Positions 1 through 63,359 of a DNA stretch of 64,000 nt are shown in pieces; positions within the stretch are counted from its first letter, which is position 1; every line of letters starts with the position of its first letter. A program made the position numbers and the translations under genes. Source of the stretch: Bdellovibrionales bacterium (GTDB lineage: Bacteria; Bdellovibrionota; Bdellovibrionia; Bdellovibrionales; Bdellovibrionaceae); assembly GCA_031370005.1 (NCBI GenBank), contig JANMPT010000077.1, forward strand, positions 83,246 through 147,245, written 5' to 3'. A model generated the notes under the pieces. The model was not told where the DNA came from, did no database searches, and saw only the letters and a program-made list of their open reading frames with translations.

Positions 1-615
1 ATGTCAGGATTTAGCGAGGCGCCCTTGCCTGCGCCACAATTTATTTTAATGCTAGTGATGCTGCTCGCATTGCTATTGTCTGGAGTCACAACGCCAATGA
101 TTGACCTTGAGGCGAAGATTTCAAAGATGAGCCTCGTACTTTTAGATCACCATCTTGTTTTCGAAAATCAGGTTTTGTATTTCCAAAGTAAAAGTATCAT
201 GGATGTCTTTGAAATTATGATCCATCACAAGGACCTCGAAATGAAGGCTGTAGGAATTCTGATGGTCATGTTCAGCATCGCATTTCCCCTGCTTAAAATA
301 CTTTCTTGTCTTGGCTATTACTATAGCAACAAAGCGCGCGAAAATAAGTTGATTCAGTTTTTTGTCTTAAAGTCGGGAAAATGGTCAATGGCCGACGTGC
401 TTGTCATTGCTATATTTATGGCTTACATCGGATTTAACGGAATCATTTCAAATCAGTTTGATAAGTTCAGTTCAGTCAGTGATAACCTGGAGCTTTTAAC
501 CACCAATGGGACTTCACTGCAGCCGGGCTTCTATATCTTCTTCACTTATGCTGTTTTAGCCCTTTTCTTGTCGGGATTCTTAGCCAAGAGAAATACCAAA
601 TCTGAATCAAAGTAA
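1..615 (+). CDS. Paraquat-inducible protein A (PqiA) family membrane protein, probably 5'-truncated by the window edge
   Basis: Hydrophobic ORF with FSIAFPLLK and GKWSMADV motifs typical of the PqiA domain. Confidence 0.75.
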   Translation: MSGFSEAPLPAPQFILMLVMLLALLLSGVTTPMIDLEAKISKMSLVLLDHHLVFENQVLYFQSKSIMDVFEIMIHHKDLEMKAVGILMVMFSIAFPLLKILSCLGYYYSNKARENKLIQFFVLKSGKWSMADVLVIAIFMAYIGFNGIISNQFDKFSSVSDNLELLTTNGTSLQPGFYIFFTYAVLALFLSGFLAKRNTKSESK

Positions 616-49845: not shown

Positions 49846-50307
49846 TTACCCATTTACAACAAAAGAGTCTGAAGTAGATGAAATATCAAGTGCGGCAACT
49901 TTTGACGGAGCTTGAAATTCTTTAACCAAAGTCACTTCGATATTAAACTTACTCTTTTCTTTCTCTAAAATCTGATTGATAGCAAGAATTCGAAAAGCCT
50001 TTTCCTGCTCTAAACTTAGACCAGTAAAATCACCACCCTTATTTTCCCACGAACGAAGAGTTGAAGCTGGAATATGAATTTTTTCAGAAACCTCATCAAA
50101 CGACATCTTTAAATAGGTACGCAAAAATTTGAGCTGGTGTCCGGTAAGACGCTGCTTGCTGGTTAATAAAGCTTTCGCAGTATCAGTTTTTAATTCATTC
50201 ATATTGATGTTTGGGTACTCTTCACCATCAACTGATTTGATAGAAACGTCTTTAAGAATGATGTCGAATCCAAAGCCTTTGAATGTGTAAGTCTTTAATA
50301 TTTTCAT
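49846..50307 (-). CDS. XRE-HTH antitoxin-like protein (MqsA/YgiT-like)
   Basis: LTGHQLKFLRTYLKMS...STLRSWE HTH; lies directly downstream of DUF4258. Confidence 0.7.
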   Translation of the reverse strand: MKILKTYTFKGFGFDIILKDVSIKSVDGEEYPNINMNELKTDTAKALLTSKQRLTGHQLKFLRTYLKMSFDEVSEKIHIPASTLRSWENKGGDFTGLSLEQEKAFRILAINQILEKEKSKFNIEVTLVKEFQAPSKVAALDISSTSDSFVVNG

Positions 50308-50310
50308 GCT

Positions 50311-50625
50311 CTAGTCCTCCTTCTTGTTCTTATCAATTACAGTTACGATCACAGTGTCGGGGGCATTGAAAACAACAATAATTCTAATGTCCTTTTCTCC
50401 ACTATCGTTCAAGCCTCGCAAGGAATATTTCCAGTCTTTTTTATCTTTAGTCAGACTGTCTTTTGCCTCTTCCCTTTGAGCCCGGTAGATCATTTCCTCG
50501 ACATCGCTCATTTGCACATTACGCCTTTCCATCTGTTCTTGTGCGTGATTTGAAGGAACTAAGTTACCGGATTCAAGTGCCTTAATTACATCCTGTATTA
50601 CGTTAACACGTTTATCTATCGACAT
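50311..50625 (-). CDS. DUF4258 putative toxin
   Basis: SNHAQEQMERRNV..SDV and VIVTV motifs. Confidence 0.75.
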   Translation of the reverse strand: MSIDKRVNVIQDVIKALESGNLVPSNHAQEQMERRNVQMSDVEEMIYRAQREEAKDSLTKDKKDWKYSLRGLNDSGEKDIRIIVVFNAPDTVIVTVIDKNKKED

Positions 50626-50879
50626 AATACACCCTCTACTTTATCAGATTGCTGAAAAATGCGCAATTTATATATTAATATATTGTACTTTCAGTAACTT
50701 ACATAATAATCATACTTGTTTTTAAGCATATTTCTCACATTGAGACAGGCCTTTAGGGTATACATTTGAATATCTCCGTCGTAGTTTTCAGCTAGTAATA
50801 TAACATAGTTTTTCGAACCAATTCATGCGGTTTCTATTGGGATTTTAACCGCCCCCAGAAACTCCAACCAAATAAGCTC

Positions 50880-51097
50880 TGGCCTCTGGGATAATTTTAA
50901 AGTGCATTCTAAGATTTGCTGCAAACGCATTGCAACTACATCTTGAGTTTTTGGATCCACCAATAATTCAGCTTTTAAAAGATTTGAGGCCTTTGGCTTT
51001 TCTGCAAAGTCTAACTGTGAAATCTCCGCATTTGGGAAAATATCACCCCAATTTCCAGTATCCATTGGTATCCACACTTTCCCAAAACAGCCCAGAT
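50880..51097 (-). pseudogene. Internally deleted duplicate of the mnt-hepT module plus upstream flank
   Basis: Patchwork matching ~52580-52674, 52875-52920 and 53312-53391. Confidence 0.85.
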
Positions 51098-51237
51098 AGC
51101 GACTTAAGATGTCTTGGTTTGGGGCCGAGTCGGCTGTAGACTCACTTTTACCTTAAATTACCAAGCCACTCCTAAAGCGTGGCCCGAAAACGAATTCTTG
51201 ACATAGTGAATAATAGTGTAATATAGTGTGAATCACT

Positions 51238-51582
51238 ATGGCGGCTTTTAAGTTCATTCAGTGGCTTGTAGATTGGATTGAAAGTCAGCCCTATTTTGCG
51301 TTTGAATGGGACCTCGGCAATCGCACCAAGAACTTCATCAAGCACGAGATCACCATTGAAGAGGCTGAGTCGGTATTTAACCAGCCAGAGGCCATCAGGG
51401 CGCTGGGTGAGCAGGTAAGCCCCAAGGCGAATGAGCCAAGATACGGAATACTTGGTCTTACTGGCACCCTAAAGCATGTTTTCGTCTGTTTTACGATCCG
51501 TGGCTCTGGAATCCGATTCATCCACATTCGGAAAATGAACAAGAAGGAGAGGAGTCTTTATGCCGAACTATGTAAAGAATGA
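51238..51582 (+). CDS. BrnT family toxin
   Basis: FEWD.GN..KN..KH.I..EEAE.VF, IRFIHIRKM..KER..Y. Confidence 0.88.
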   Translation: MAAFKFIQWLVDWIESQPYFAFEWDLGNRTKNFIKHEITIEEAESVFNQPEAIRALGEQVSPKANEPRYGILGLTGTLKHVFVCFTIRGSGIRFIHIRKMNKKERSLYAELCKE

Positions 51583-51796
51583 AAAAGGCTATGCAAGCGT
51601 CAAGTTTAACGCCAAGGCTGTCAAGGATGCCTATTCCAAGGCTAAGACCAAGCGCAAACACCCTACGAGCGTCAACCTGCCCGAAGAAGTTATCACGGGT
51701 CTTAAGGCGTTGGCCTTGCAGCTGGAGGTCCCTTACCAGACCCTCATGCGCAAGTTCATCACAGAGGGCCTGGCTAAGAGTAAAAAAGGCGCTTAA
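51560..51796 (+). CDS. BrnA/CopG-type antitoxin
   Basis: TSVNLPEEVI..LK..A....VPYQTLM; overlaps the toxin end; GGAGAGGAG RBS. Confidence 0.85.
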   Translation: MPNYVKNEKGYASVKFNAKAVKDAYSKAKTKRKHPTSVNLPEEVITGLKALALQLEVPYQTLMRKFITEGLAKSKKGA

Positions 51797-51807
51797 CGGG
51801 AACTGCC

Positions 51808-52134
51808 ATGATCGAATTTACCAAGTCTGAAAAACGAGAGTTGCGCCGTCTGGCTGGCGACGCTTACAAAGCTGAGATGGAGAAAGAAGTCGCCAAACTT
51901 GAAGCTGCATTTAAGACATGGCGTGATGGCAAAATCACCGTCTTTGACTTAGATGAGCAAGTCCACGCCTATTATTCTGGTCCACGCAAACAACTCTATG
52001 CCTTCTACCAAATGCGGAACCAACCTGAAGCAGCAGTGGCGCGTGGTTTAGCAATGGGACTGATTGACGCTGTACAAGTGCCTACCGAAATAAAAGCAAA
52101 GATTGAGCACATGATTGGATTTTTCAAAAGGTAA
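51808..52134 (+). CDS. Hypothetical protein
   Basis: 108-aa helical ORF immediately after the antitoxin. Confidence 0.65.
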   Translation: MIEFTKSEKRELRRLAGDAYKAEMEKEVAKLEAAFKTWRDGKITVFDLDEQVHAYYSGPRKQLYAFYQMRNQPEAAVARGLAMGLIDAVQVPTEIKAKIEHMIGFFKR

Positions 52135-52220
52135 AGATCGGCACATGATTCCCTATTATCGACGTTTGGGCCTGAAACTCAAATCAAATAAATTTAGGTG
52201 ACCCATAAGCTCGGCTATGG
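52127..52220 (+). repeat. ~94-bp direct repeat, copy 1 (copy 2 at 58009-58102)
   Basis: 73-bp identical core 52137-52209 = 58019-58091. Confidence 0.9.
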
Positions 52221-52423
52221 GTTTCATTACATGGGTTGCATATATGCAACTCCACCCAAGAAATTTCCATGTAATCTAACCATTTGGGAAAATGTCAGCT
52301 CAATTTCCAGTAATCCTATGAAAATGGCCTCTTTTTTAAACCGGCGCGTGCACTTTAATAAGTAAATAATCGACATCAATGAATACGATCTCTCTCAGTA
52401 TACCAAAGGCCACTTTGTCTCAA

Positions 52424-52768
52424 TCAGCTATTCTTCCTCGCCCACTCGATAAGCTTTTCAAACTCTTCAAAGTCATTGATGACTTCCCAGACAATGGCGA
52501 CATCGACGTCAATATAGGAATGCGAGATCTTATTTCTCATTGCAACCAATGCCGACCAATTGATCTCTAACTTACCCCTGGCCTCTGTGGATAATTTAGA
52601 AGCGCATTCTAAAATTTGCTGCAAACGCATCGCTACTGCATCTTGAGTTTTTGGATCCACCATAAATTCAGCTTGAGAAATATCAGTTAAATATCTTTCA
52701 ACAAAACCATGTGCTTCTGAAATATTGCGATAGTATTCACGATCTCGTTCACTAGTACTAAAAGACAC
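52424..52768 (-). CDS. HepT-like (DUF86/HEPN) RNase toxin
   Basis: RNKISHSY = RX4HXY motif, DAV.MRLQ.I.E. Confidence 0.88.
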   Translation of the reverse strand: MSFSTSERDREYYRNISEAHGFVERYLTDISQAEFMVDPKTQDAVAMRLQQILECASKLSTEARGKLEINWSALVAMRNKISHSYIDVDVAIVWEVINDFEEFEKLIEWARKNS

Positions 52769-53258
52769 GGACTCCATCCTTTTCAATCTCGGCCATCAAT
52801 CGACGGCCTTTTTCCGATTCGAGCCAGCTTACTACGTCAACCTTAATTTCACCAAAGGCTTCAATCACCCGACCTTCAGCTTTTAAAAGATTTGAAGCCC
52901 TTGGCTTTTCTGCAAAGTCCAAATAGACGTCAATGTCAGAGCCCTCTTTATCCTCTTTCCTTGCCACTGAACCAAAAATGAAAACGTGGCGTACACCCAT
53001 GCCCTTTAGCTCTTTGCGCAAACGACCCAAAACATCTTTTGCAAAGGAAAGCCTTGGCGCTTGAGAGGGAATTAAGTCAGGTAAGATTTCGAGCTTAAAG
53101 CCGGCGGCCTTTGAAATCTTCTCTACGACTTCAAAGCTCGGGCTTATCGCTCCGGAATTCACGCGACTGATGGTCGATGGCGATAGCCCTGTTCTGCGGG
53201 CAATCTCCTTAACCCCGATTCTTTCAATAGCGGTACTTAACTCTTTCATTACTTCCAT
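52758..53258 (-). CDS. XRE-HTH + minimal nucleotidyltransferase (MntA-like) antitoxin
   Basis: N-terminal HTH (EIARRTGLSPSTISR), FGSVAR...SDIDV = GSX10DXD. Confidence 0.88.
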   Translation of the reverse strand: MEVMKELSTAIERIGVKEIARRTGLSPSTISRVNSGAISPSFEVVEKISKAAGFKLEILPDLIPSQAPRLSFAKDVLGRLRKELKGMGVRHVFIFGSVARKEDKEGSDIDVYLDFAEKPRASNLLKAEGRVIEAFGEIKVDVVSWLESEKGRRLMAEIEKDGVRVF

Positions 53259-53261
53259 GCC

Positions 53262-53295
53262 CTATACTACCACAGGTGGTTGCGTATACGCAACC
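53262..53295 (-). promoter_or_regulatory. Promoter and palindromic operator of mnt-hepT
   Basis: Perfect 18-bp palindrome GGTTGCGTATACGCAACC (53278-53295) overlapping TTGCGT...TAGTAT. Confidence 0.7.
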
Positions 53296-53512
53296 CCTAA
53301 GGAAATTCCCCTGAAATCTCCGCGTTTCGGAAAATATCAGCCCAATTTCCAGTATCCACTGGTATCCACACTTTCCCAAAACAGCCCAGATCAAGAACCA
53401 ACAAAACGGACCAAGCTGAAAACACTAACCTACTGAAATAAATAGATTAAGCGCGAAAATACGGGTCGTTTTTGTGACTTAGTTAAATCGTTAAAAATGC
53501 CTATGGGATGCT

Positions 53513-53560
53513 CTTTCACGGAGGATACAGGGGTTCGAATCCCCTTGGGAACGCCAAATT
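53513..53560 (+). repeat. attR-like duplication of the tRNA-Glu 3' half
   Basis: Identical to 48435-48482. Confidence 0.92.
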
Positions 53561-53620
53561 ACTCTTCGATCTTTTTCCACTTTGGCTCTTCTCACTTAAC
53601 AGTTTATCACGAAGCGCATT

Positions 53621-53715
53621 CTAGTAAAAACAAGCGTTTAGTGTTTTCAAACGATAGTTTACAAAGTTTCTAAAGCGTCTCGCCCCTCTCTGGAGGGCTT
53701 TTATACTGCTCCCAC
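53621..53715 (-). mobile_element. ISL3-family transposase C-terminal scar
   Basis: IKALQRGARRFRNFVNYRLKTL resembles the ISL3 IK..KR.AYGFRN..N.R.RI terminus. Confidence 0.5.
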
Positions 53716-53749
53716 ATAACTCGCTGACAGCGCCCTCCGAGGGTTTGTC

Positions 53750-53950
53750 AGCAAGATTACAGAATCCTGATATCGCTCGGTCGATCAGCGCAAGGTCTGC
53801 GGGGCGATCCATATTAATGGTGAGCGGCATCGACGATTCCAAAAACTGATCAACGCTGAAATAGAAATAAGGCTCGGGAAGCTGATTTAAAAGCGCCTTC
53901 GCTGTTGTCGTCTTTCCGGAGCTTGAAGTTCCATTTAACAATATGATCAT
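53750..53950 (-). pseudogene. Chloramphenicol phosphotransferase (CPT)-like kinase, N-terminal fragment
   Basis: MIILLNGTSSSGKTT.AKAL...L.EPY..FSVDQF; truncated after ~65 aa. Confidence 0.7.
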
Positions 53951-53966
53951 GAGAAGCAATACCTTT

Positions 53967-54227
53967 CTAATCCGTTTTGACCTTCAAAGCTCTTTCCACT
54001 TTCTCAAGTCTTTGTTCAAGACTCTCGTGTTTCATGACGGCTTCGCGCAAAAGATGGTTCATCAAAGTTTGATACTTTGCGCCTTCTTGATCCGCTTTAT
54101 CCTTCAACATCAAAATTAAATCTGCATCAAACCACGAGGTCACTTTTATCTTTGTTGTCTTCGGGTCGAATGGGTTCTCGGGAACTTCGACTTTCCCGTA
54201 TTTTATCTTACTTGCTTTGCGTTTCAT
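53967..54227 (-). CDS. BrnA/CopG-like antitoxin
   Basis: D.DL...LK.KA...G.KYQTLMN..LR; GGAGG RBS. Confidence 0.75.
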   Translation of the reverse strand: MKRKASKIKYGKVEVPENPFDPKTTKIKVTSWFDADLILMLKDKADQEGAKYQTLMNHLLREAVMKHESLEQRLEKVERALKVKTD

Positions 54228-54468
54228 ACCAATCCTCCAAAAGTCTCTTTTGATAAGGGCGTAAAGACTTAATGATTTCATTCACGGCTTTTTCGCTGAA
54301 TCCAAAACCGTCTAGAACTTCAAAATTATCGATGCGCACTTTTACTTCAGCCTCGGGCCGTTTTCCTGAACCTTTCCGCACAACAAGATGGGGATGCCCA
54401 TGATCTTTGTAGTAGAGGTAGGCCGTTAATCCAGAAAGTATGTTTAATAGATACTCAATCCGAGGCAT
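54208..54468 (-). CDS. DUF4160 family putative toxin
   Basis: MPRI...YLYYKDHGHPHL.V...LLEDW. Confidence 0.75.
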   Translation of the reverse strand: MPRIEYLLNILSGLTAYLYYKDHGHPHLVVRKGSGKRPEAEVKVRIDNFEVLDGFGFSEKAVNEIIKSLRPYQKRLLEDWYETQSK

Positions 54469-54827
54469 AGTTTACTATGCCATACTTTGTATGTATATGT
54501 CAATATTTTCATCGGATTCGTTAGGAGAGGCTACGGAGGCATAATTTCGGTAGAACAGGGAGAACTGTTCTACCTCCGGAGAACCGCCTCGGCGCTGCCC
54601 CTTTGCTCTCCACGGCGGCTATGGTCGTAACCATGGCAAATGTGAACCAGGTGGAAAAGATGTCAAGGTGGGGATTTGAAGATTTCTCGCAATAGAGTTT
54701 AGGACATCGCGCCAAGTATGACAAAACTCTTAAGCGATGGTTCACGCTTACCCGCCAATGCCGCACGACGCAGAAGCTCTGCTCGCTCTCAACGCAAAAT
54801 AGATCGCAAGTTTATCATCTAGCCCTG

Positions 54828-54858
54828 TTGACCTTGCCGTTACGTCAAGCCCCATGAT
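54828..54858 (+). promoter_or_regulatory. MerR-type promoter with 19-bp spacer and dyad operator
   Basis: TTGACC (54828-33), 19 bp, CATGAT (54853-58); dyad CTTGCCGT-t-ACGTCAAG (54833-49). Confidence 0.85.
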
Positions 54859-54883
54859 GAAATCAATGGGAAGGAATTCAAAG

Positions 54884-56419
54884 ATGCTCTCGATTGGAAA
54901 TTTCGCAAAATCAGCCAAAGTCTCTGCGCGCACCGTAAGGCATTACGAGTCTATCGGGCTTTTGCCAATATCCTCTCGTAGCGAAAACAATTATCGCCGC
55001 TACGACCAAAAATGGCTTGAACGGATGAACCGCATTCGAGATCTGCAAAGCTTGGGATTTAGTCTTGAAGACATCAAGATAATCATCAACTTTTCGGATT
55101 CTGAATTAAAGGTTCGTCTTGATGGGCGACTTTTGGAAATAGAACAGGAAATTGAAAACCTCGAAGAGCGCCGAGAGCGTGTGAAGAATCTCCTTTCCGT
55201 CTCAAATAAAATTGAAACAGGTGAAACTCTCACCGCATCGGAAAGGAATCTCTACATGGACAGTATAAGAGAAGAAGTCATGAGCGGCTTGCGCAGTCGC
55301 TACAATGAGGTCACGGATTTAGCGGTCGCTTATTTAAAGCGAGATACATGGCTCGATATTCACCCTCAAGTAGGAGAATTTATCGAGGCCGTTAAAAAAT
55401 GTATGGATTTTGCGAAAAGCAAAAAACTCACGTTAGGAACAGCACGAGGAAGTTCGCCAGCTAGCATGTCCTTTTTTGGACTCGGCTTCTCACTCGTTGA
55501 TCCCTTAAAATATGAAATGATTCCTGAGAGACTTTCAACTCAGGCTCCTTTCTTTCATATCGATGTCGAGTATGAACGCGGACAAGAATTCGTCGATTTT
55601 TGCCGTGAAATGAATAAGTCACTGACTTATGGAGAAATTCAGGCATTCAAAATGCCATTGATCGATGTCGTCCAAAATACCCACAGAGCTATTGGCAAAA
55701 TCATTAATTACGATGCGATTGAGGACGACTCGGAGACAGTTTTGAGTCCCTTCAAAAATGGCGATCTAGAAAAGATATTTCAGTTCGACTTTTCAGAAGA
55801 CGCTCTCGTTATGAATTACGAGCGATTTTTGCCTGAATACCGGGGGCTTAATAAAATTACCGAGTGCTTTAAAGGCCAGCGGGTTTTCAACTTCAGAGAC
55901 ATTATCAATATCACCGCACTTTGGCGTCCGCATTCGCAAGAAATTGTAGACAGAATTAATCTGTACCGCGAAGCCAAAGCGAAACCGTTTTCTTATGACT
56001 TTCTTTCAGAAAAAATCGAAGCTTGGTTGAAGCCAAATTATGGGGTCATCATTTATCATGAAGATATCTTAAAAATAGTATCCGAATATACGGGGTGGGA
56101 TTTTGCGAGAAGCAACTCCCTCCGACGAGCTTGCATGAATAAAAATAAAATCGCTCAACGTAATCAGGACGCGAACTGGATTGAGTTCCAAAAAATTGCG
56201 CCCAAGCAAGTTGTTGAACTCGTAGGTGAGGAAAGTAAGTGGGCCTTCTGCCTCCCCCATGCCATTGCTTTTGCCAAGTTTACGAAGCAAACGGCGGTTT
56301 TAAAGACTTTGCACAAAGAAGCTTACTTTGCGGAAATTCAAAACTTTGAACAAAAGCATGGGTTCAAATGGGATGACATCGGAATTCGCATTAATGGCGT
56401 TTCTCTGCATCAAGGATAG
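54884..56419 (+). CDS. MerR-family regulator fused to an inactive DnaE (Pol III alpha) palm/fingers-like domain
   Basis: MerR HTH (IGNFAK..KVSARTVRHYESIGLL...NNYRRY) plus coiled coil, then DnaE-like ARGSS, VDPLKY...ER, IFQF, ALWRP, YGVIIYHE, LRRA, AFC.PHA, QTA.LK motifs; AAGGA RBS. Confidence 0.85.
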   Translation: MLSIGNFAKSAKVSARTVRHYESIGLLPISSRSENNYRRYDQKWLERMNRIRDLQSLGFSLEDIKIIINFSDSELKVRLDGRLLEIEQEIENLEERRERVKNLLSVSNKIETGETLTASERNLYMDSIREEVMSGLRSRYNEVTDLAVAYLKRDTWLDIHPQVGEFIEAVKKCMDFAKSKKLTLGTARGSSPASMSFFGLGFSLVDPLKYEMIPERLSTQAPFFHIDVEYERGQEFVDFCREMNKSLTYGEIQAFKMPLIDVVQNTHRAIGKIINYDAIEDDSETVLSPFKNGDLEKIFQFDFSEDALVMNYERFLPEYRGLNKITECFKGQRVFNFRDIINITALWRPHSQEIVDRINLYREAKAKPFSYDFLSEKIEAWLKPNYGVIIYHEDILKIVSEYTGWDFARSNSLRRACMNKNKIAQRNQDANWIEFQKIAPKQVVELVGEESKWAFCLPHAIAFAKFTKQTAVLKTLHKEAYFAEIQNFEQKHGFKWDDIGIRINGVSLHQG

Positions 56420-56424
56420 ATACC

Positions 56425-56463
56425 TTTACACAATATACATAAATTCTATGTATATTGTGTAAA
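56425..56463. repeat. Perfect 17-bp inverted repeat
   Basis: TTTACACAATATACATA-aattc-TATGTATATTGTGTAAA. Confidence 0.85.
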
Positions 56464-56556
56464 CTTGGAAAAGCGGCGAATAAACCTTAATTTCACCAAA
56501 GGCTTCGAAACTTCTACTCGAAGCGCCTTCCAGAGTGTTTCATACCCAAAATTATA

Positions 56557-56593
56557 CCAATCTTACCCAGTTACTAGGTTTGGGTAAGATTGG
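56557..56593. repeat. Perfect 13-bp inverted repeat
   Basis: CCAATCTTACCCA-N11-TGGGTAAGATTGG. Confidence 0.8.
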
Positions 56594-56630
56594 CGGACAA
56601 ACTCTTTTAGCCTCGTCGCAGATGACCCAC

Positions 56631-57857
56631 TCATGGCACCGAACAAGAATCCTTTAGAATGTCGATAATACTATTAATATCACCCTCCTTTTTGCCATCT
56701 CTGAATTCGAGTTTTAAAATGCCAGAACTGATCTCCTTTGGACCGACAATTAATTTGGCAAAGGGCCGATACTTATGCGCAAACAAGACCCGCTTTGATA
56801 GAGAGCCTTGACTTTCGTCAACCTTGGCCCGAATCCCAGCTTTCATAAGCGCCTTATGAATTTTTCGACACTCGTCACTTTCTCGATCAGACAAAGGCAA
56901 CAGCATCACTTGAATTGGCGAAAGCCACCCGGGCAGTTGGCCGTCAAAATACTCCAATAGCAGAGCAACAAATCTCTCGTGACTGCCCAGGGGGGCTCGA
57001 TGAATGATCCACGGACGCACTTGTTCGCCAGATCTTGCCGAATAGGCGAGACCGAATCTCTCTGCTGACAAAAAATCAAGCTGAACACTGGCAATAGATT
57101 CCTCTTGGCCCGAACCCATTTTCATTTGCACATCAATTTTCGGTCCATAAAATGCGGCCTCTCCGACGTCCTCAAAAAATTCAAGTCCTCGCTCTAATAA
57201 TGCCTTTCTTAAAATAGATTCTGCCTCGATCCATTTGCAGTCCTCCCCTTGAAAGTCATTTGGCCTTGACGGGTCCCGAAGCGACAGACGATAGCGATAT
57301 CCCTTCAGGCCCAACTTTTTGTAACACTCTTCGTGCAAATCCAAGACACAGAGCACTTCTTTTAACGAGTCCCCTGGATCAACATAAATATGGGCGTCGT
57401 TTTGACAAAGCCCGCGCACACGACTTAGCCCACGAAGTGAGCCACTCGGCTCAAATCTGTAAACTTGGCCGTACTCAGCAATTCTTAACGGCAAATGACG
57501 GTAGCTTCTTGGCAGCGCAGAAAAAACCTTGTGATGATGGGGACAGTTCATCGGCTTCAGATAGAAACTTTTTTTGTCCTCATCTCCTTCTTTTTGCCAA
57601 TGAATCGGCGGATACATGTTTTCATTAAAACAACTTAAGTGACCCGACTTCTCGTAAAGGTCTTGACGCCCAAGATGTGGACTCACCACTCTCTGGTATC
57701 CCCCCTGACGCTCAAGTTCTTTAACAAAAATCTCTAACTGGTCACGAATGGCGACTCCATTTGGCAGCCACACCGGCAAGCCCGCGCCGATCTCCTCGTC
57801 AAAGAAACAAATCTCCATTTCATCGGCCAACTGCCGATGATCAAACTGATAAGACAT
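56631..57857 (-). CDS. thrS: Short threonyl-tRNA synthetase (catalytic + anticodon domains; no TGS/editing domains)
   Basis: Begins at DHR; KPMNCP, YRFEPSG.L.GL.RVR, NDAH, GEAAFYGPKID, IHRAPLGSHERF; GAAGGGA RBS. Confidence 0.9.
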   Translation of the reverse strand: MSYQFDHRQLADEMEICFFDEEIGAGLPVWLPNGVAIRDQLEIFVKELERQGGYQRVVSPHLGRQDLYEKSGHLSCFNENMYPPIHWQKEGDEDKKSFYLKPMNCPHHHKVFSALPRSYRHLPLRIAEYGQVYRFEPSGSLRGLSRVRGLCQNDAHIYVDPGDSLKEVLCVLDLHEECYKKLGLKGYRYRLSLRDPSRPNDFQGEDCKWIEAESILRKALLERGLEFFEDVGEAAFYGPKIDVQMKMGSGQEESIASVQLDFLSAERFGLAYSARSGEQVRPWIIHRAPLGSHERFVALLLEYFDGQLPGWLSPIQVMLLPLSDRESDECRKIHKALMKAGIRAKVDESQGSLSKRVLFAHKYRPFAKLIVGPKEISSGILKLEFRDGKKEGDINSIIDILKDSCSVP

Positions 57858-58008
57858 AAGAATTCCCTTCAGATGCAAATCCAAAAAAAGATTAAACGCA
57901 TCAATCAAAAATAAATTTCGCCAAAAAATAATATTTGTTGGTCCCGTGCTCGGGACAAAACGATCTATGGACCCCTATGGGGTGGTTTGAAAGGCGCTAG
58001 AATAAAAG

Positions 58009-58102
58009 AAAGGTAAATATCGGCACATGATTCCCTATTATCGACGTTTGGGCCTGAAACTCAAATCAAATAAATTTAGGTGACCCATAAGTTCTGCTAT
58101 GG
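58009..58102 (+). repeat. ~94-bp direct repeat, copy 2
   Basis: Matches 52127-52220. Confidence 0.9.
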
Positions 58103-58160
58103 CCTTTATTAGGGACACCTAGATGATGATCTACACCTTAATATGCCATATTAACGAATT

Positions 58161-58203
58161 ACGATCTCGTTCACTAGCACTAAAAGACACGGACTCCATC
58201 CTT
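58161..58203 (-). repeat. 43-bp remnant of the mnt/hepT junction
   Basis: Matches 52739-52781 with one mismatch. Confidence 0.85.
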
Positions 58204-58468
58204 ACCCTCAGAGTTCCACTGAACTCCTGGCCAGAGAGGAAATATCATGGTATGAAATGCTGAATGAGCGACTTACGCAAAATCCCTATCATCCAACAAG
58301 CCCTATTCTTCTAGCCCCTGGTTTTTAACCTGCTCTCGCGTCAAGACATCGAACGGAGAGTTAGCAAATAGATCCGCCTTATCCTTGGAAAGAAAAACGA
58401 GATCTCCAGTCTGATGAACACACGCAATCCATTTCTTAAAATCATCTCGTCCGGGCTTAATCTTCACT

Positions 58469-58858
58469 TCAAGAAACCCGCTTATCTGCCAAATCAAAAT
58501 CCACAAGAATTCGATCGTAGAGTGCCATCGGCTTCAACCGCTCGCGTCCTTGCACTAATTTTTTCTGCAGCTTAATGAGACCAAGGCTTTCAAGCACTCG
58601 GACTTCTTTTGAAACGTAACTCAAATCGCGATCGAAAAGTTTCGCAAGGTCATAGACTGACTCTGGATGTTCCTCGTGGATGAGGCGAAAGAGGTGCAGA
58701 CGATTTTCAGTCGCAACCGTAAGAAGTGCTTTTAGCGAAGACGATCTGATCTCATCTTTTTCAATATGGGGTTTGCCGGACTTTGCAGCCTTGAGCATTT
58801 GATCCATCGAACCTTTCACCGTCGCCTTTGGATCGTAACGAAATGTAAACGTTTTCAT
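58469..58858 (-). CDS. wHTH protein (HVO_A0114-like), putative antitoxin
   Basis: T.NRL.L...I....PESVYDLAK...RD...VSKEV..LE..GLI...L.P...YD. Confidence 0.7.
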   Translation of the reverse strand: MKTFTFRYDPKATVKGSMDQMLKAAKSGKPHIEKDEIRSSSLKALLTVATENRLHLFRLIHEEHPESVYDLAKLFDRDLSYVSKEVRVLESLGLIKLQKKLVQGRERLKPMALYDRILVDFDLADKRVS

Positions 58859-59134
58859 CTATACCTCCACACTTGCACCGAAGTGTTTCTTAATCGCGCC
58901 GGCAAAAAAGTCGCGAACGTCTTCTAGCGTTTCAGCTTCAACCGGCTCTTGCTGTCCACCATCATAATGCACATGAACTCCGAAAGGCTGATGGCAATCG
59001 ACGAGAACCCGCCGCATTGGATTTTCTATCTCAAAGAAAATCCAGCTGAAGCGAAATCGGTCGAGAAAGAGGCCCTTCGCCTTTCCTTTACCCACACCGA
59101 ACAAATCCATATGATTTAGTCTAGGTCGGTACAA
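58859..59134 (-). CDS. DUF6516/TumE-like putative toxin, 5' end possibly truncated
   Basis: RFSW...RVLVDCHQPFGVHVH motif; translationally adjacent to the wHTH gene. Confidence 0.55.
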   Translation of the reverse strand: MYRPRLNHMDLFGVGKGKAKGLFLDRFRFSWIFFEIENPMRRVLVDCHQPFGVHVHYDGGQQEPVEAETLEDVRDFFAGAIKKHFGASVEV

Positions 59135-59185
59135 AGTCGGGACTGCCCCCGTTATTGATGTAGACCCGTTAAAATAAATCCAGAT

Positions 59186-60139
59186 TTAACAAATTTTTAA
59201 AACATCCATCTCTTGGCACTTTTCCCTATGCAGTTCTGGGGGAAGATTTTTTAAAATAGCCTCTTTGATAGCCGCAGCCATTTTTCTTCGCCACTGGGTT
59301 CGTCGTCCAACAAGGCTGACCTCGCGACCCGGTGAAGGAATTTTAAAACCACGAACATGTGCTTGAACTTCGGCCTGAGACATTTGATGAATCATGAAGG
59401 CGGGCAAAAGCGTGTAGCCAGTCCCTTTCCTGATGAGTCGAAGCAAGGTATCTAAATTGCCACCTTGAAATTTTACTTTGGGCATTCGTCCCAATTCATT
59501 TGGCTCCAACGAGCAAATTTGAGCAATCTGGTCCTTAAAACAATGTCCATCTTGTAAAAGCCAGAGGTCTGATGCGTCTAGGTCTCTAACCAAGCAATTC
59601 TTGTTCTTCAGCAATTTATGTCCTTTGGATGCGTAGATATAAAAAGGTTCATAAAAGAGAGGTTCCTCTACGAGATGCCCCAACTCCAGAGGAGTCACCA
59701 TCAATGCGGCATCAAGGCGATCCTCTTCTAGCGCCTTTAAAATTGCGCCAGTTTTTAGTTCGTCAACAATAAGAGTAACTTGAGGATGTGATTTAGAAAA
59801 CTGGTGAAGGAAATGCGGTATCAGAGTGCTTGCTAGAGTTGGTATAACACCAAGCCGAAACTCACCGGCGATCTCATCAGACTTTTGATGTGCAATATCT
59901 TTAAGCTTCTTGTGTTCTTTCAGTATCAGCCTTGCTTGCTTTAGAAGAGCTTCGCCCTCCGCTGTCACTACGAGAGGTTTCTTGACACGATCAAAAATCA
60001 CGGTATCTAAAGTTTCTTCTACTTTTCTCACTTGCTGGCTCAAAGTAGGCTGAGAAATATGACAAGCCGCTGCCGCCTTGCCGAAATGTCTTAAATCAGC
60101 TACCGCAACAATATACTCCAACTGGACTAAACTTGGCAT
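59186..60139 (-). CDS. oxyR: H2O2-responsive LysR regulator OxyR
   Basis: LysR HTH, LLQDGHCFKDQIAQIC with C-X8-C redox pair, divergent from katG. Confidence 0.9.
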   Translation of the reverse strand: MPSLVQLEYIVAVADLRHFGKAAAACHISQPTLSQQVRKVEETLDTVIFDRVKKPLVVTAEGEALLKQARLILKEHKKLKDIAHQKSDEIAGEFRLGVIPTLASTLIPHFLHQFSKSHPQVTLIVDELKTGAILKALEEDRLDAALMVTPLELGHLVEEPLFYEPFYIYASKGHKLLKNKNCLVRDLDASDLWLLQDGHCFKDQIAQICSLEPNELGRMPKVKFQGGNLDTLLRLIRKGTGYTLLPAFMIHQMSQAEVQAHVRGFKIPSPGREVSLVGRRTQWRRKMAAAIKEAILKNLPPELHREKCQEMDVLKIC

Positions 60140-60257: not shown

Positions 60258-62540
<2,283 letters not shown>

Positions 62541-62876: not shown

Positions 62877-63359
62877 CTATAAACTTGATTCAAAAAATTC
62901 TTTTTGCGTTTTTTTGCGCTCCTTTAAGTACTCACCGTAGTTTTCGTTGTACTTGTCATTATTTTTCAAAAGACATAAAGATATCGATGCTATCTGCCGA
63001 GCTAAATTCAGTTTGGCATCCTTGTGGTCCACACCCTTGGCTCGAAGGGCATCATATCGATCCCTTAATTCACCATCCAAACGCATCACATTTTCAGCGG
63101 CGCCAATGAAAACATTGCGAAGCTCGCGCCTGCCAAAAAATCTCTTGTTCCCATAAATTTTTCCGCCTGATTCCTGGATATGGCGAACCAACATACAGTA
63201 TCCCCAGAACCTGTGTTTGTTCTCAAATCTGGCAGGCTGGCAAACAATCGCTGCAATAATATTGGCGCGGATTATACTAATCCCAGGAATCGTCATCAAA
63301 TTGCGGATCGGACGGTACTTTTTTCGATTTTTTTCGAAAACGTCTAAAGTGTTACCCAT
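62877..63359 (-). mobile_element. IS110-family transposase, C-terminal (Tnp_20) half only
   Basis: LMTIPGIS...RF......GYC.L....ESGGK...GRRELR...AA; the DEDD RuvC half is missing. Confidence 0.8.

Follow-up and report, generated by a model that had tools for sequence, protein, structure and literature searches.

A MerR-type regulator joined to a catalytically dead DnaE core in Bdellovibrio-type bacteria, a candidate self-amplifying sensor and sink

We describe a gene, here called MerR-pseudoDnaE, in a 64,000-nucleotide stretch of a Bdellovibrionales bacterium genome (3.2 Mb, 99.8% complete; the stretch is hereafter the window, and its positions are used throughout). The gene encodes a MerR-type DNA-binding region followed by a domain that, on sequence comparison and structural modelling, is a thumb-less, PHP-less and catalytically dead palm-and-fingers core of DnaE, DNA polymerase III's alpha subunit (Pol III alpha). 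The gene's own promoter holds an operator of which no close second copy was found in the genome; no partner gene is conserved beside it, and an internal Shine-Dalgarno (SD)-like sequence with a start codon is conserved. These features shift the reading from a regulator of other genes towards a self-amplifying sensor plus sink of the TipA/AlbA type, encoded by a single gene and equipped with a new kind of ligand-binding module, a reading that we favour with some caution.

The open reading frame (ORF) spans 54854..56419 on the forward strand, as do all features of the gene given below, and yields 511 aa when read from the ATG at 54884. This long-form coding sequence (54884..56419) was defined from the ORF list, its translation, Pfam matches and the search for relatives. 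We take 54884 rather than the ATG at 54854 as the true start because the latter falls within the -10 hexamer of the promoter, and a conserved SD sequence upstream of 54884 further backs this choice. An initial annotation of the window had proposed a MerR helix-turn-helix (HTH) with a coiled coil over residues ~1-115; Pfam MerR_1, MerR-DNA-bind and a model helix now place both within residues 1-112. The winged HTH covers residues 3-68 (54890..55087; MerR_1, E 1.6e-16, 60.6 bits against a cut-off of 21.6), a second profile, Pfam MerR, scores 48.6 bits on the protein, and MerR-DNA-bind matches residues 45-100 (28.6 bits, cut-off 25.4). A long helix follows at residues 72-112 (55097..55219; pLDDT 84-89 in the AF2 model), which by analogy with MerR proteins would be the dimerisation coiled coil. 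In structural comparisons with VIA, residues 1-106 reach Z 12.4 to SoxR (2ZHG) and Z 10-12 across SoxR, CadR, CueR and TipAN.

The CueR/MerR metal sensors are the nearest group for the HTH and dimerisation helix, judged by the CueR model and by PDB matches, and some relatives carry the database label ‘MerR family copper efflux transcriptional regulator’. Identity as a CueR-type copper regulator was nevertheless rejected, with the CueR model TIGR02044 at 68.5 bits, far under its cut-off of 147.4. The first cysteine of the protein is C173 and residues 1-172 contain none, so the CueR metal-binding loop, which we take to lie at the end of the dimerisation helix, is absent.

The remainder of the protein is matched by DnaE profiles. 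DNA_pol3_alpha (PF07733) is found at residues 128-297, i.e., profile positions 3-175 of 260 (34.7 bits, Pfam cut-off 23.9), and DNA_pol3_finger (PF17657) at residues 333-433, i.e., profile positions 60-159 of 166 (62.1 bits, cut-off 22). The palm-like part covers residues 126-270 (55259..55693; Pfam, phmmer and hhalign) and includes R188-G189-S190 and R216; the fingers-like part covers residues 271-493 (55694..56362; Pfam, hhalign and VIA) and includes R348-P349, G387, E393, R413-R414, F455 and H459. As the initial annotation had expected, the MerR, DNA_pol3_alpha and DNA_pol3_finger profiles all score above their Pfam cut-offs, and a profile of 59 family members aligns with a profile of 32 canonical DnaE sequences over 340 columns (hhalign, E 7.7e-42). 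The order of DnaE motifs that had been read from the sequence by eye (RGS, DP..ER, FQ, RP, YG..Y-ED, RRA and F..PH) was reproduced both by hhalign and by phmmer against the PDB, in its alignment with 2HNH, the E. coli Pol III alpha (E 4.5e-12). Matches in PHROGs are confined to phage DNA polymerase families. Full-length DnaE models in NCBIfam match in two stretches only (34-99 bits against cut-offs of 434-1806), and in the same genome canonical DnaE is encoded separately, on contig C54 (1181-aa frame, 338.8 bits).

Structural modelling points the same way. The AF2 model built on the family alignment (pLDDT 90.3, pTM 0.77) overlays on DnaE as anticipated, with Z 32.0 and a root-mean-square deviation of 3.2 A over 351 residues to Mycobacterium tuberculosis (Mtb) DnaE1 (7PU7; model residues 110-493 versus chain residues 308-819) and Z 30.4 to 2HNH (119-495 versus 284-797), where ~100-130 thumb residues are missing mid-range; overall, the palm and fingers fold is shared with DnaE at Z 28-32 (VIA). 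In a Foldseek search with the model, the top 14 PDB matches are all Pol III alpha (best E 1.3e-12), PolC comes next, and the N-terminus is matched by MerR-family chains. The thumb, ~100 residues of the genome's own DnaE, is cleanly cut out after ‘YGEIQA’, just before K256, and a family-specific insertion of ~19 residues is found at 304-323 (both hhalign).

The protein has no Pfam match to PHP, thumb or (HhH)2, and since the aligned range amounts to E. coli 284-797 minus the thumb, the PHP domain, the thumb and everything beyond the proximal fingers are absent. The initial claim that the PHP, thumb, HhH/OB and clamp-binding regions are lacking is thereby borne out by Pfam, hhalign and the VIA aligned range: compared with DnaE, the PHP domain, thumb, (HhH)2/beta-binding region, OB fold and C-terminal domain are missing and a MerR domain is added. 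PHP, thumb and (HhH)2 are nearly universal in C-family polymerases. The homology to the DNA-binding palm and fingers could suggest a DNA- or replication-linked role, in which the domain would recognise a primer end, a gap or a part of the replisome and tie transcription to the state of replication. The absent parts, however, are those that carry the duplex DNA, clamp, tau and epsilon contacts in DnaE, and the free short form predicted below would have no obvious purpose in such a role, which we regard as very unlikely.

All three catalytic aspartates of DnaE are replaced: E. coli D401, D403 and D555 correspond to F223, H225 and P258. The former catalytic strand, P222-F-F-H225-I-D227 (55547..55564; phmmer and hhalign), stands opposite PDFDVD in the alignments, in agreement with the initial reading of the PDxD motif as PFFHID, and D405 is kept as D227. 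The same annotation had considered the third-aspartate KxDxLG motif to be gone. This needs to be amended, as the strand is retained (K256-M-P258, 55649..55657; hhalign and family alignment), with K256-M-P258-L-I opposite K-F-D-F-L of the genome's own DnaE, and only the aspartate has changed, to proline. Among 59 close relatives the second catalytic position is always histidine and the third always proline (P258 is invariant in 59/59 and in 32/32 sequences), so that, unlike in DnaE, neither is ever aspartate in the family; the first position is F in 21, D in 17, N in 7 and S in 5. The roles of the active-site aspartates in C-family polymerases have been described, together with a catalytic triad called absolutely conserved, in an analysis from which sequences without an intact active site had been taken out (PMC3919608).

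From 47 positions invariant in the DnaE alignment, 43 align with the MerR-pseudoDnaE protein and 22 are identical, among them R188, G189, S190, R216, K256, R348, P349, G387, E393, R414, F455 and H459, as well as the D405 equivalent D227, a residue that distinguishes DnaE from PolC (PMC3919608). At further DnaE-invariant positions, the family has an invariant residue of its own (P214, H225, P258, D302). When the alignment is extended to 21% identity, the invariants of the C-terminal domain are R188, P258, D339, G387 and H459. Alignment also agrees with the earlier proposal that the nucleotide-contacting GS motif and arginines are retained: R188, G189, S190, R216, K256, R348 and R414 are kept, and hhalign against canonical DnaE recovers both the RGS motif and the ER arginine R216. 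Judged by these alignments, the residues that hold the incoming nucleotide in DnaE are selectively retained in the pseudo-DnaE domain. A universal Cys/His metal or Fe-S site, considered because C173, H225, C240, C456 and H459 are invariant in the 59 close relatives, was rejected because only H459 of these stays invariant down to 21% identity. The sequence may instead accommodate a His/Asp-rich site (H225, D227, H392, D394, H459).

This pattern raises the possibility of a physiological nucleotide sensor, in which the pocket would read deoxynucleoside triphosphates (dNTPs), NTPs, an alarmone or a cyclic nucleotide, the long form would regulate further genes and the short form would act solely as a buffer that dampens the response. 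The equivalents of the triphosphate contacts (R188-G189-S190, R216, K256, R413-R414) are retained while the metal-binding aspartates are lost; nucleotide signals are bound by other MerR proteins, BrlR with c-di-GMP being among the PDB matches; and Bdellovibrio-type predators live on prey nucleotides. We return to this proposal once the operator has been described.

Selection on the gene was estimated from omega (dN/dS, Nei-Gojobori). In the DnaE-like part, omega is 0.037 between the window and its closest locus (L003) and 0.08 between loci L007 and L008; in the MerR part of the same pairs it is 0.16 and 0.19. For five further pairs with the window, dS was saturated in the DnaE-like part and omega could be given for the MerR part only (0.17-0.19). 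Low omega together with new family-invariant residues marks this as neofunctionalisation and not as decay. In the comparison with L003, dS is 0.82 in the MerR-coding part (54884..55228) versus 1.65 in the DnaE-like part (55256..56416); the lower value may reflect additional nucleotide-level constraint near the 5' end.

A word-index search of 7,996 scored proteins found at least 143 relatives at E <=1e-3, down to 21% identity and mostly labelled Bdellovibrio-type. Among the 120 matches listed, 112 combine MerR with both Pol III Pfam domains; the remaining ones comprise six shorter proteins (387-464 aa) without a MerR match and two truncated proteins without a finger match. Exhaustive phmmer with residues 116-511, run with no length limit, gave 4,746 matches at E <=1e-3. 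Twenty-nine of these reach E <=1e-30, all ~500 aa or fragments, and canonical DnaE of ~1000 aa appears only from E ~1e-21, the better matches among those listed being at most 541 aa long. MerR_1 was found at the start of 16/16 distant ~500-aa matches scanned. From species-representative genomes, 32 of the 47 loci fetched are family members, labelled Bdellovibrionaceae, Pseudobdellovibrionaceae, Bacteriovoracaceae, Halobacteriovoraceae and Oligoflexia, with one Flavobacteriaceae; the 15 others come from Methanobrevibacter and from Actinomycetota, the latter being probably ordinary DnaE. When genomes sampled evenly across the phylum were queried with the 387-aa form at E <=1e-25, 12/301 matched (six with close members and six with a subfamily at 25-30% identity), including 7/35 in the same family as the window. 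With a distribution that is old but patchy, MerR-pseudoDnaE behaves as an accessory gene.

Two database proteins resemble the C-terminal domain without a MerR part. P0160 (370 aa) and P0194 (413 aa) have a strong DNA_pol3_alpha match (profile 2-130 only) and a full finger domain, are thumb-less and PHP-less, and match phrog_405, a family of phage DNA polymerases (E 6.5e-87 for P0160 and 8.8e-122 for P0194). P0160 belongs to a cluster of 13 members, one of them found on 66 contigs, and still shows an E-x-D-x-D strand as well as K-x-D, where P0194 reads D-x-S-x-D and G-W-P. Both proteins may be related to the thumb-less core or represent its precursors.

These data also settle whether the fusion is a chimeric pseudogene or misassembly without function. 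The gene is indeed split into two ORFs in two MAG (metagenome-assembled genome) loci, L015 (5971..7536, 83+426 aa) and L028 (5971..7548, 150+313 aa), of 28 related loci whose ORFs were examined, possibly through a frameshift, a stop or an assembly error. Set against this are the relatives and the three domain types that recur together in nearly all of those listed, the 32 family loci from independent assemblies, omega values of 0.04-0.19, the new family-invariant residues, and the conserved promoter and internal start. This explanation is refuted, and we leave it next to no probability. The full-length homologs and the purifying selection that the initial annotation had asked for are both present, with omega 0.04-0.08 in the polymerase-like domain. 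A clear DnaE match was found, and the fusion is not a unique chimera decaying neutrally: it is ancient, recurrent and under strong purifying selection.

Upstream of the gene, a promoter of the type used by MerR regulators was identified. The -35 hexamer TTGACC (54828..54833; TTGAnn in 29/29 loci and TTGAC[CT] in 27) is followed after 19 bp by the -10 hexamer CATGAT (54853..54858), the exact spacer being conserved in 29/29 loci. Inside the spacer lies an operator dyad, CTTGCCG-TTA-CGTCAAG (54833..54849), with 6/7 arm positions complementary and conservation across loci. The layout TTGAnn-N19-nAnnnT with dyad is found in all 29 loci; for L031 and L034 the script returned a shifted register, and the sequence reads TTGACC-N19-TATGAT by eye. 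The main SD-like sequence, GGGAAGGA (54868..54875), has a mean anti-SD duplex energy of -6.96 kcal/mol across loci, with an SD-like 5-mer in 24/26. Conservation among loci runs from the -35 to the ATG, and the DNA upstream of the -35 is unrelated. MerR regulators work on suboptimal promoters with spacers of 19-20 bp (PMC8113463), and the palindrome inside such a spacer, a feature of MerR-family operators, is present here at the sequence level. A general promoter scan does not list this promoter because it allows spacers of 16-18 nt only, and the single mismatch between its arms keeps the dyad out of the results of a repeat search. In the distant subfamily (loci L051-L056), a GC-rich conserved dyad, CTGCCCC-N-GGGGCGG, is seen ~35-50 nt upstream of the start, followed in 4/6 loci by a conserved ACTTGAGCCTTAGTATCAGAGGTTC before the ATG.

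No second operator was found in the 3.2-Mb genome in searches for near-identical sites (21-mer with up to 3 mismatches; 17-mer dyad with up to 2 mismatches). At 3 mismatches the dyad has 12 other matches (11 sites), of which three were looked into, and the sole palindromic one (C37:1952) sits inside the coding sequence of an HTH protein. No conserved partner gene emerged either, as no cluster of flanking genes is shared by as many as 4 of the 29 loci. Apparent second family ORFs were rejected: the one in L020 is a different, SoxR-like MerR protein, and those in L015 and L028 are the halves of the split gene. With its sole operator on its own promoter and no conserved neighbour, the only recognisable output of MerR-pseudoDnaE is more of itself. 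Both results argue against the physiological nucleotide sensor considered above; in addition, a protein could not plausibly buffer an abundant metabolite by stoichiometric binding, and a core physiological sensor would be expected beyond 12/301 sampled genomes. We therefore consider that explanation unlikely, though not negligible.

A second conserved translation signal lies inside the gene. An internal SD-like sequence, GGAAAGGAAT (55240..55249), includes the AGG codon of R121 and precedes M125, from which a short-form coding sequence (55256..56419) would give 387 aa, i.e., the pseudo-DnaE domain alone. In a codon alignment of the window with 25 loci (excluding L015 and L028, where the gene is split, and L021, L025, L026, L027 and L034, which are partial), R121 is encoded by AGG in 26/26 genes, while AGG makes up 89/796 arginine codons (11%) overall and occurs in 0-3/26 genes at each of nine other conserved arginine columns. 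Among 159 conserved degenerate columns (mean normalised codon entropy 0.82), it is the only one below 0.1, its entropy being zero, i.e., without codon variation. Six genes of the 25-30% identity subfamily, fetched independently, all carry AGG at R121, with AGG at 12/171 arginine codons (7%) overall. An in-frame ATG (31) or GTG (1) follows 6-9 nt downstream of the R121 codon in 32/32 genes, and M125 is nearly invariant, the lone non-Met being the GTG. Close members have the context GAA AGG AAT ... ATG, distant members CAA AGG AGG ... ATG, a pattern that resembles the main site GGGAAGGAAT-N6-ATG. Mean anti-SD pairing is -7.1 kcal/mol before M125, close to the value before M1, against a background of 13,018 in-frame positions with a mean of -1.62 kcal/mol and a 5th percentile of -5.9; the anti-SD sequence used is a generic consensus. 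Two database gene calls (P0065 and P0082, both 387 aa) begin exactly at the M125 position. The simplest reading of this conservation is apparently a second in-frame product, residues 125-511, devoid of the DNA-binding and dimerisation parts.

Taken together, these observations suggest the following model. The 511-aa long form would sit, as a MerR-family dimer, on the dyad in the over-long 19-bp spacer of its own promoter. Binding of a ligand to its C-terminal domain would remodel the spacer and switch on its own transcription, and the same mRNA would give rise, through the internal ribosome-binding site and M125, to the 387-aa short form, which, unable to bind DNA, would accumulate as a sink for the ligand. 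The ligand domain keeps the basic residues and the histidine that, in a working polymerase, line the site of the incoming nucleotide. In this model, the protein would serve as an inducible decoy that mimics the target. Sequence and structure show the domain anatomy, the lost catalytic triad, purifying selection, the operator in the gene's own promoter with no close second copy, the lack of a conserved partner gene and the conserved internal SD with its start; that the protein binds DNA, is activated by a ligand, yields the short form and sequesters the ligand, and what the ligand is, we infer.

A precedent for this design is TipA, in which one autoregulated gene serves as sensor, activator and neutraliser through two in-frame products (PMC7762955). 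In TipAL of Streptomyces lividans, a MerR HTH and a coiled coil precede the C-terminal ligand domain, which by itself makes up the short product TipAS; MerR-pseudoDnaE likewise has an operator in its own promoter, no other target found and an internal SD with a start at residue 125, although here the two products and the autoregulation are predicted from sequence. The ligand domains differ, TipAS having an all-helical fold and MerR-pseudoDnaE a dead DnaE palm-and-fingers core, and the TipAS domain PF07739 is absent among the 7 Pfam families reported for the protein at E <=10. With a common logic and a different ligand domain, MerR-pseudoDnaE is not a member of the TipA class by homology. AlbA of Klebsiella oxytoca upregulates itself, its short form AlbAS comprises residues 128-348, i.e., the ligand-binding domain only, and its promoter spacer is 19 bp (bioRxiv 10.64898/2026.09.21.753095); the internal start is thus at residue 128 compared with 125 here, and the spacer length matches. 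AlbAS is a promiscuous binder with a helical tunnel and mimics no target, whereas the domain described here is homologous to a potential target enzyme.

What the ligand might be is suggested by the residues that are kept. Since these are residues of the nucleotide site, the likeliest ligand would fit that site, such as a nucleotide analogue that is toxic or a natural product directed at the polymerase; and since a protein sink is sensible only for a scarce and harmful ligand, such a compound is favoured over a normal metabolite and is our best guess. A related precedent is NarR/NgnU, a DnaE homologue encoded beside the nargenicin cluster in the producer and proposed as a ‘decoy’; compared by description only, it differs in that neither a regulator fusion nor two isoforms are reported there (PMC8922275). 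A more specific version of our preferred reading, put forward tentatively, would make the gene an inducible polymerase decoy of predators: a natural ligand of the DnaE site, encountered while preying or competing, would induce the gene through the long form and be soaked up by the free dead domain. The patchy distribution (12/301 genomes) and the toxin-antitoxin-rich setting of the gene would fit such an accessory protective gene.

The same setting beside toxin-antitoxin modules, along with the accessory and patchy nature of the gene, could speak for a decoy aimed at a protein, in which a phage, prey or competitor protein directed against the replicative polymerase would be soaked up by the short form and sensed by the long form. 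A strongly conserved, surface-preserving DnaE fold would also suit this role. The best-conserved residues, however, are in buried nucleotide-site motifs, the match to PADLOC defence models is limited to the HTH (mad1, residues 2-46), and we know of no anti-DnaE protein of this sort. We consider this explanation decidedly unlikely.

Several points weigh against a self-amplifying sensor and sink for a polymerase-site ligand. The first catalytic aspartate is still aspartate in 17/59 family members, and the gene is split in 2/28 related loci. The operator search could have missed weaker members of a regulon, and the distant subfamily (L051-L056) has no cleanly assignable -35/-10 and a different upstream dyad. 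The short form is predicted from codon and motif conservation, and the resemblance to TipA is one of design, not of homology. As to the ligand, nargenicin, the one characterised natural DnaE inhibitor, requires DNA stacked into the active site for its binding and forms hydrogen bonds with Gln638, Arg667 and His787 of Mtb DnaE1 (PMC8922275); the pseudo-DnaE domain has neither the thumb nor the distal parts that bind DNA. By motif spacing, the nargenicin contacts would map to Q300 (Q in 26/59), R348 (56/59) and H459 (59/59), so that two of the three hydrogen-bond partner equivalents would be conserved in the family.

A prior description of a MerR-DnaE fusion was not found in a full-text literature search, consistent with the initial annotation, which knew of none. 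The main texts of two polymerase censuses contain none of the terms ‘MerR’, ‘HTH’, ‘helix-turn-helix’ or ‘Bdellovibrio’, and ‘MerR’ and ‘HTH’ are absent from the part of one supplement file of the 2026 census that was covered.

Around the gene, the window shows toxin-antitoxin modules upstream and a convergent threonyl-tRNA synthetase (ThrRS) paralogue downstream. The upstream region 49846..54468 holds small toxin-antitoxin-type genes (DUF4258, BrnT, a HepT/MNT-like pair at 52424..53258, BrnA-like and DUF4160), including within the run a truncated chloramphenicol-phosphotransferase-like fragment (53621..53959, profile 2-44 of 172), and looks like an accessory island flanking MerR-pseudoDnaE. 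The ~360 bp between this run and the promoter (54469..54827) contain no convincing ORF and no Rfam family at gathering score; near the promoter they resemble the closest locus L003, with no wider conservation. No tRNA or tmRNA was found in 50000-60000. Six nt past the stop codon, between the convergent genes, lies a perfect, AT-rich, terminator-like hairpin of 17 bp (56425..56463, no strand assigned; repeat search). The ThrRS-like protein (56631..57908, reverse strand, 425 aa) has only the class II core and anticodon-binding domains, and its N-terminal domains are thus missing; the other ThrRS of the genome is a 665-aa frame on contig C61 with 36% identity to it, and the paralogue is not conserved beside MerR-pseudoDnaE in other loci (29 loci). 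Further downstream, a LysR-type regulator gene (59186..60139, reverse strand) is divergent from a 750-aa peroxidase-family gene (60288..62540, forward strand), and the two look like an OxyR/KatG-type pair. A 160-aa ORF matching Transposase_20 (IS116/IS110/IS902 family; 62877..63359, reverse strand) is possibly a fragment.

MerR-pseudoDnaE is the first C-family polymerase homologue that we are aware of to lack the ‘absolutely conserved’ catalytic triad while being strongly selected as part of a transcription factor, and for this family the database labels ‘copper efflux regulator’ and ‘DNA polymerase III alpha subunit’ are misleading. On our reading, the TipA and AlbA design, with sensor, activator and sink in a single gene, would extend to a completely different ligand domain, derived from a drug-target enzyme, suggesting target mimicry as a route to inducible protection. 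Very few natural ligands are known for the replicative polymerase site, an antibiotic target, and the promoter, the operator and the two predicted isoforms offer a testable handle on natural molecules that address it. If the more specific decoy version is true, the family is a pointer to natural poisons of the replicative polymerase that form a class so far unrecognised, and would provide a ready-made one-gene biosensor and affinity reagent with which to find them.

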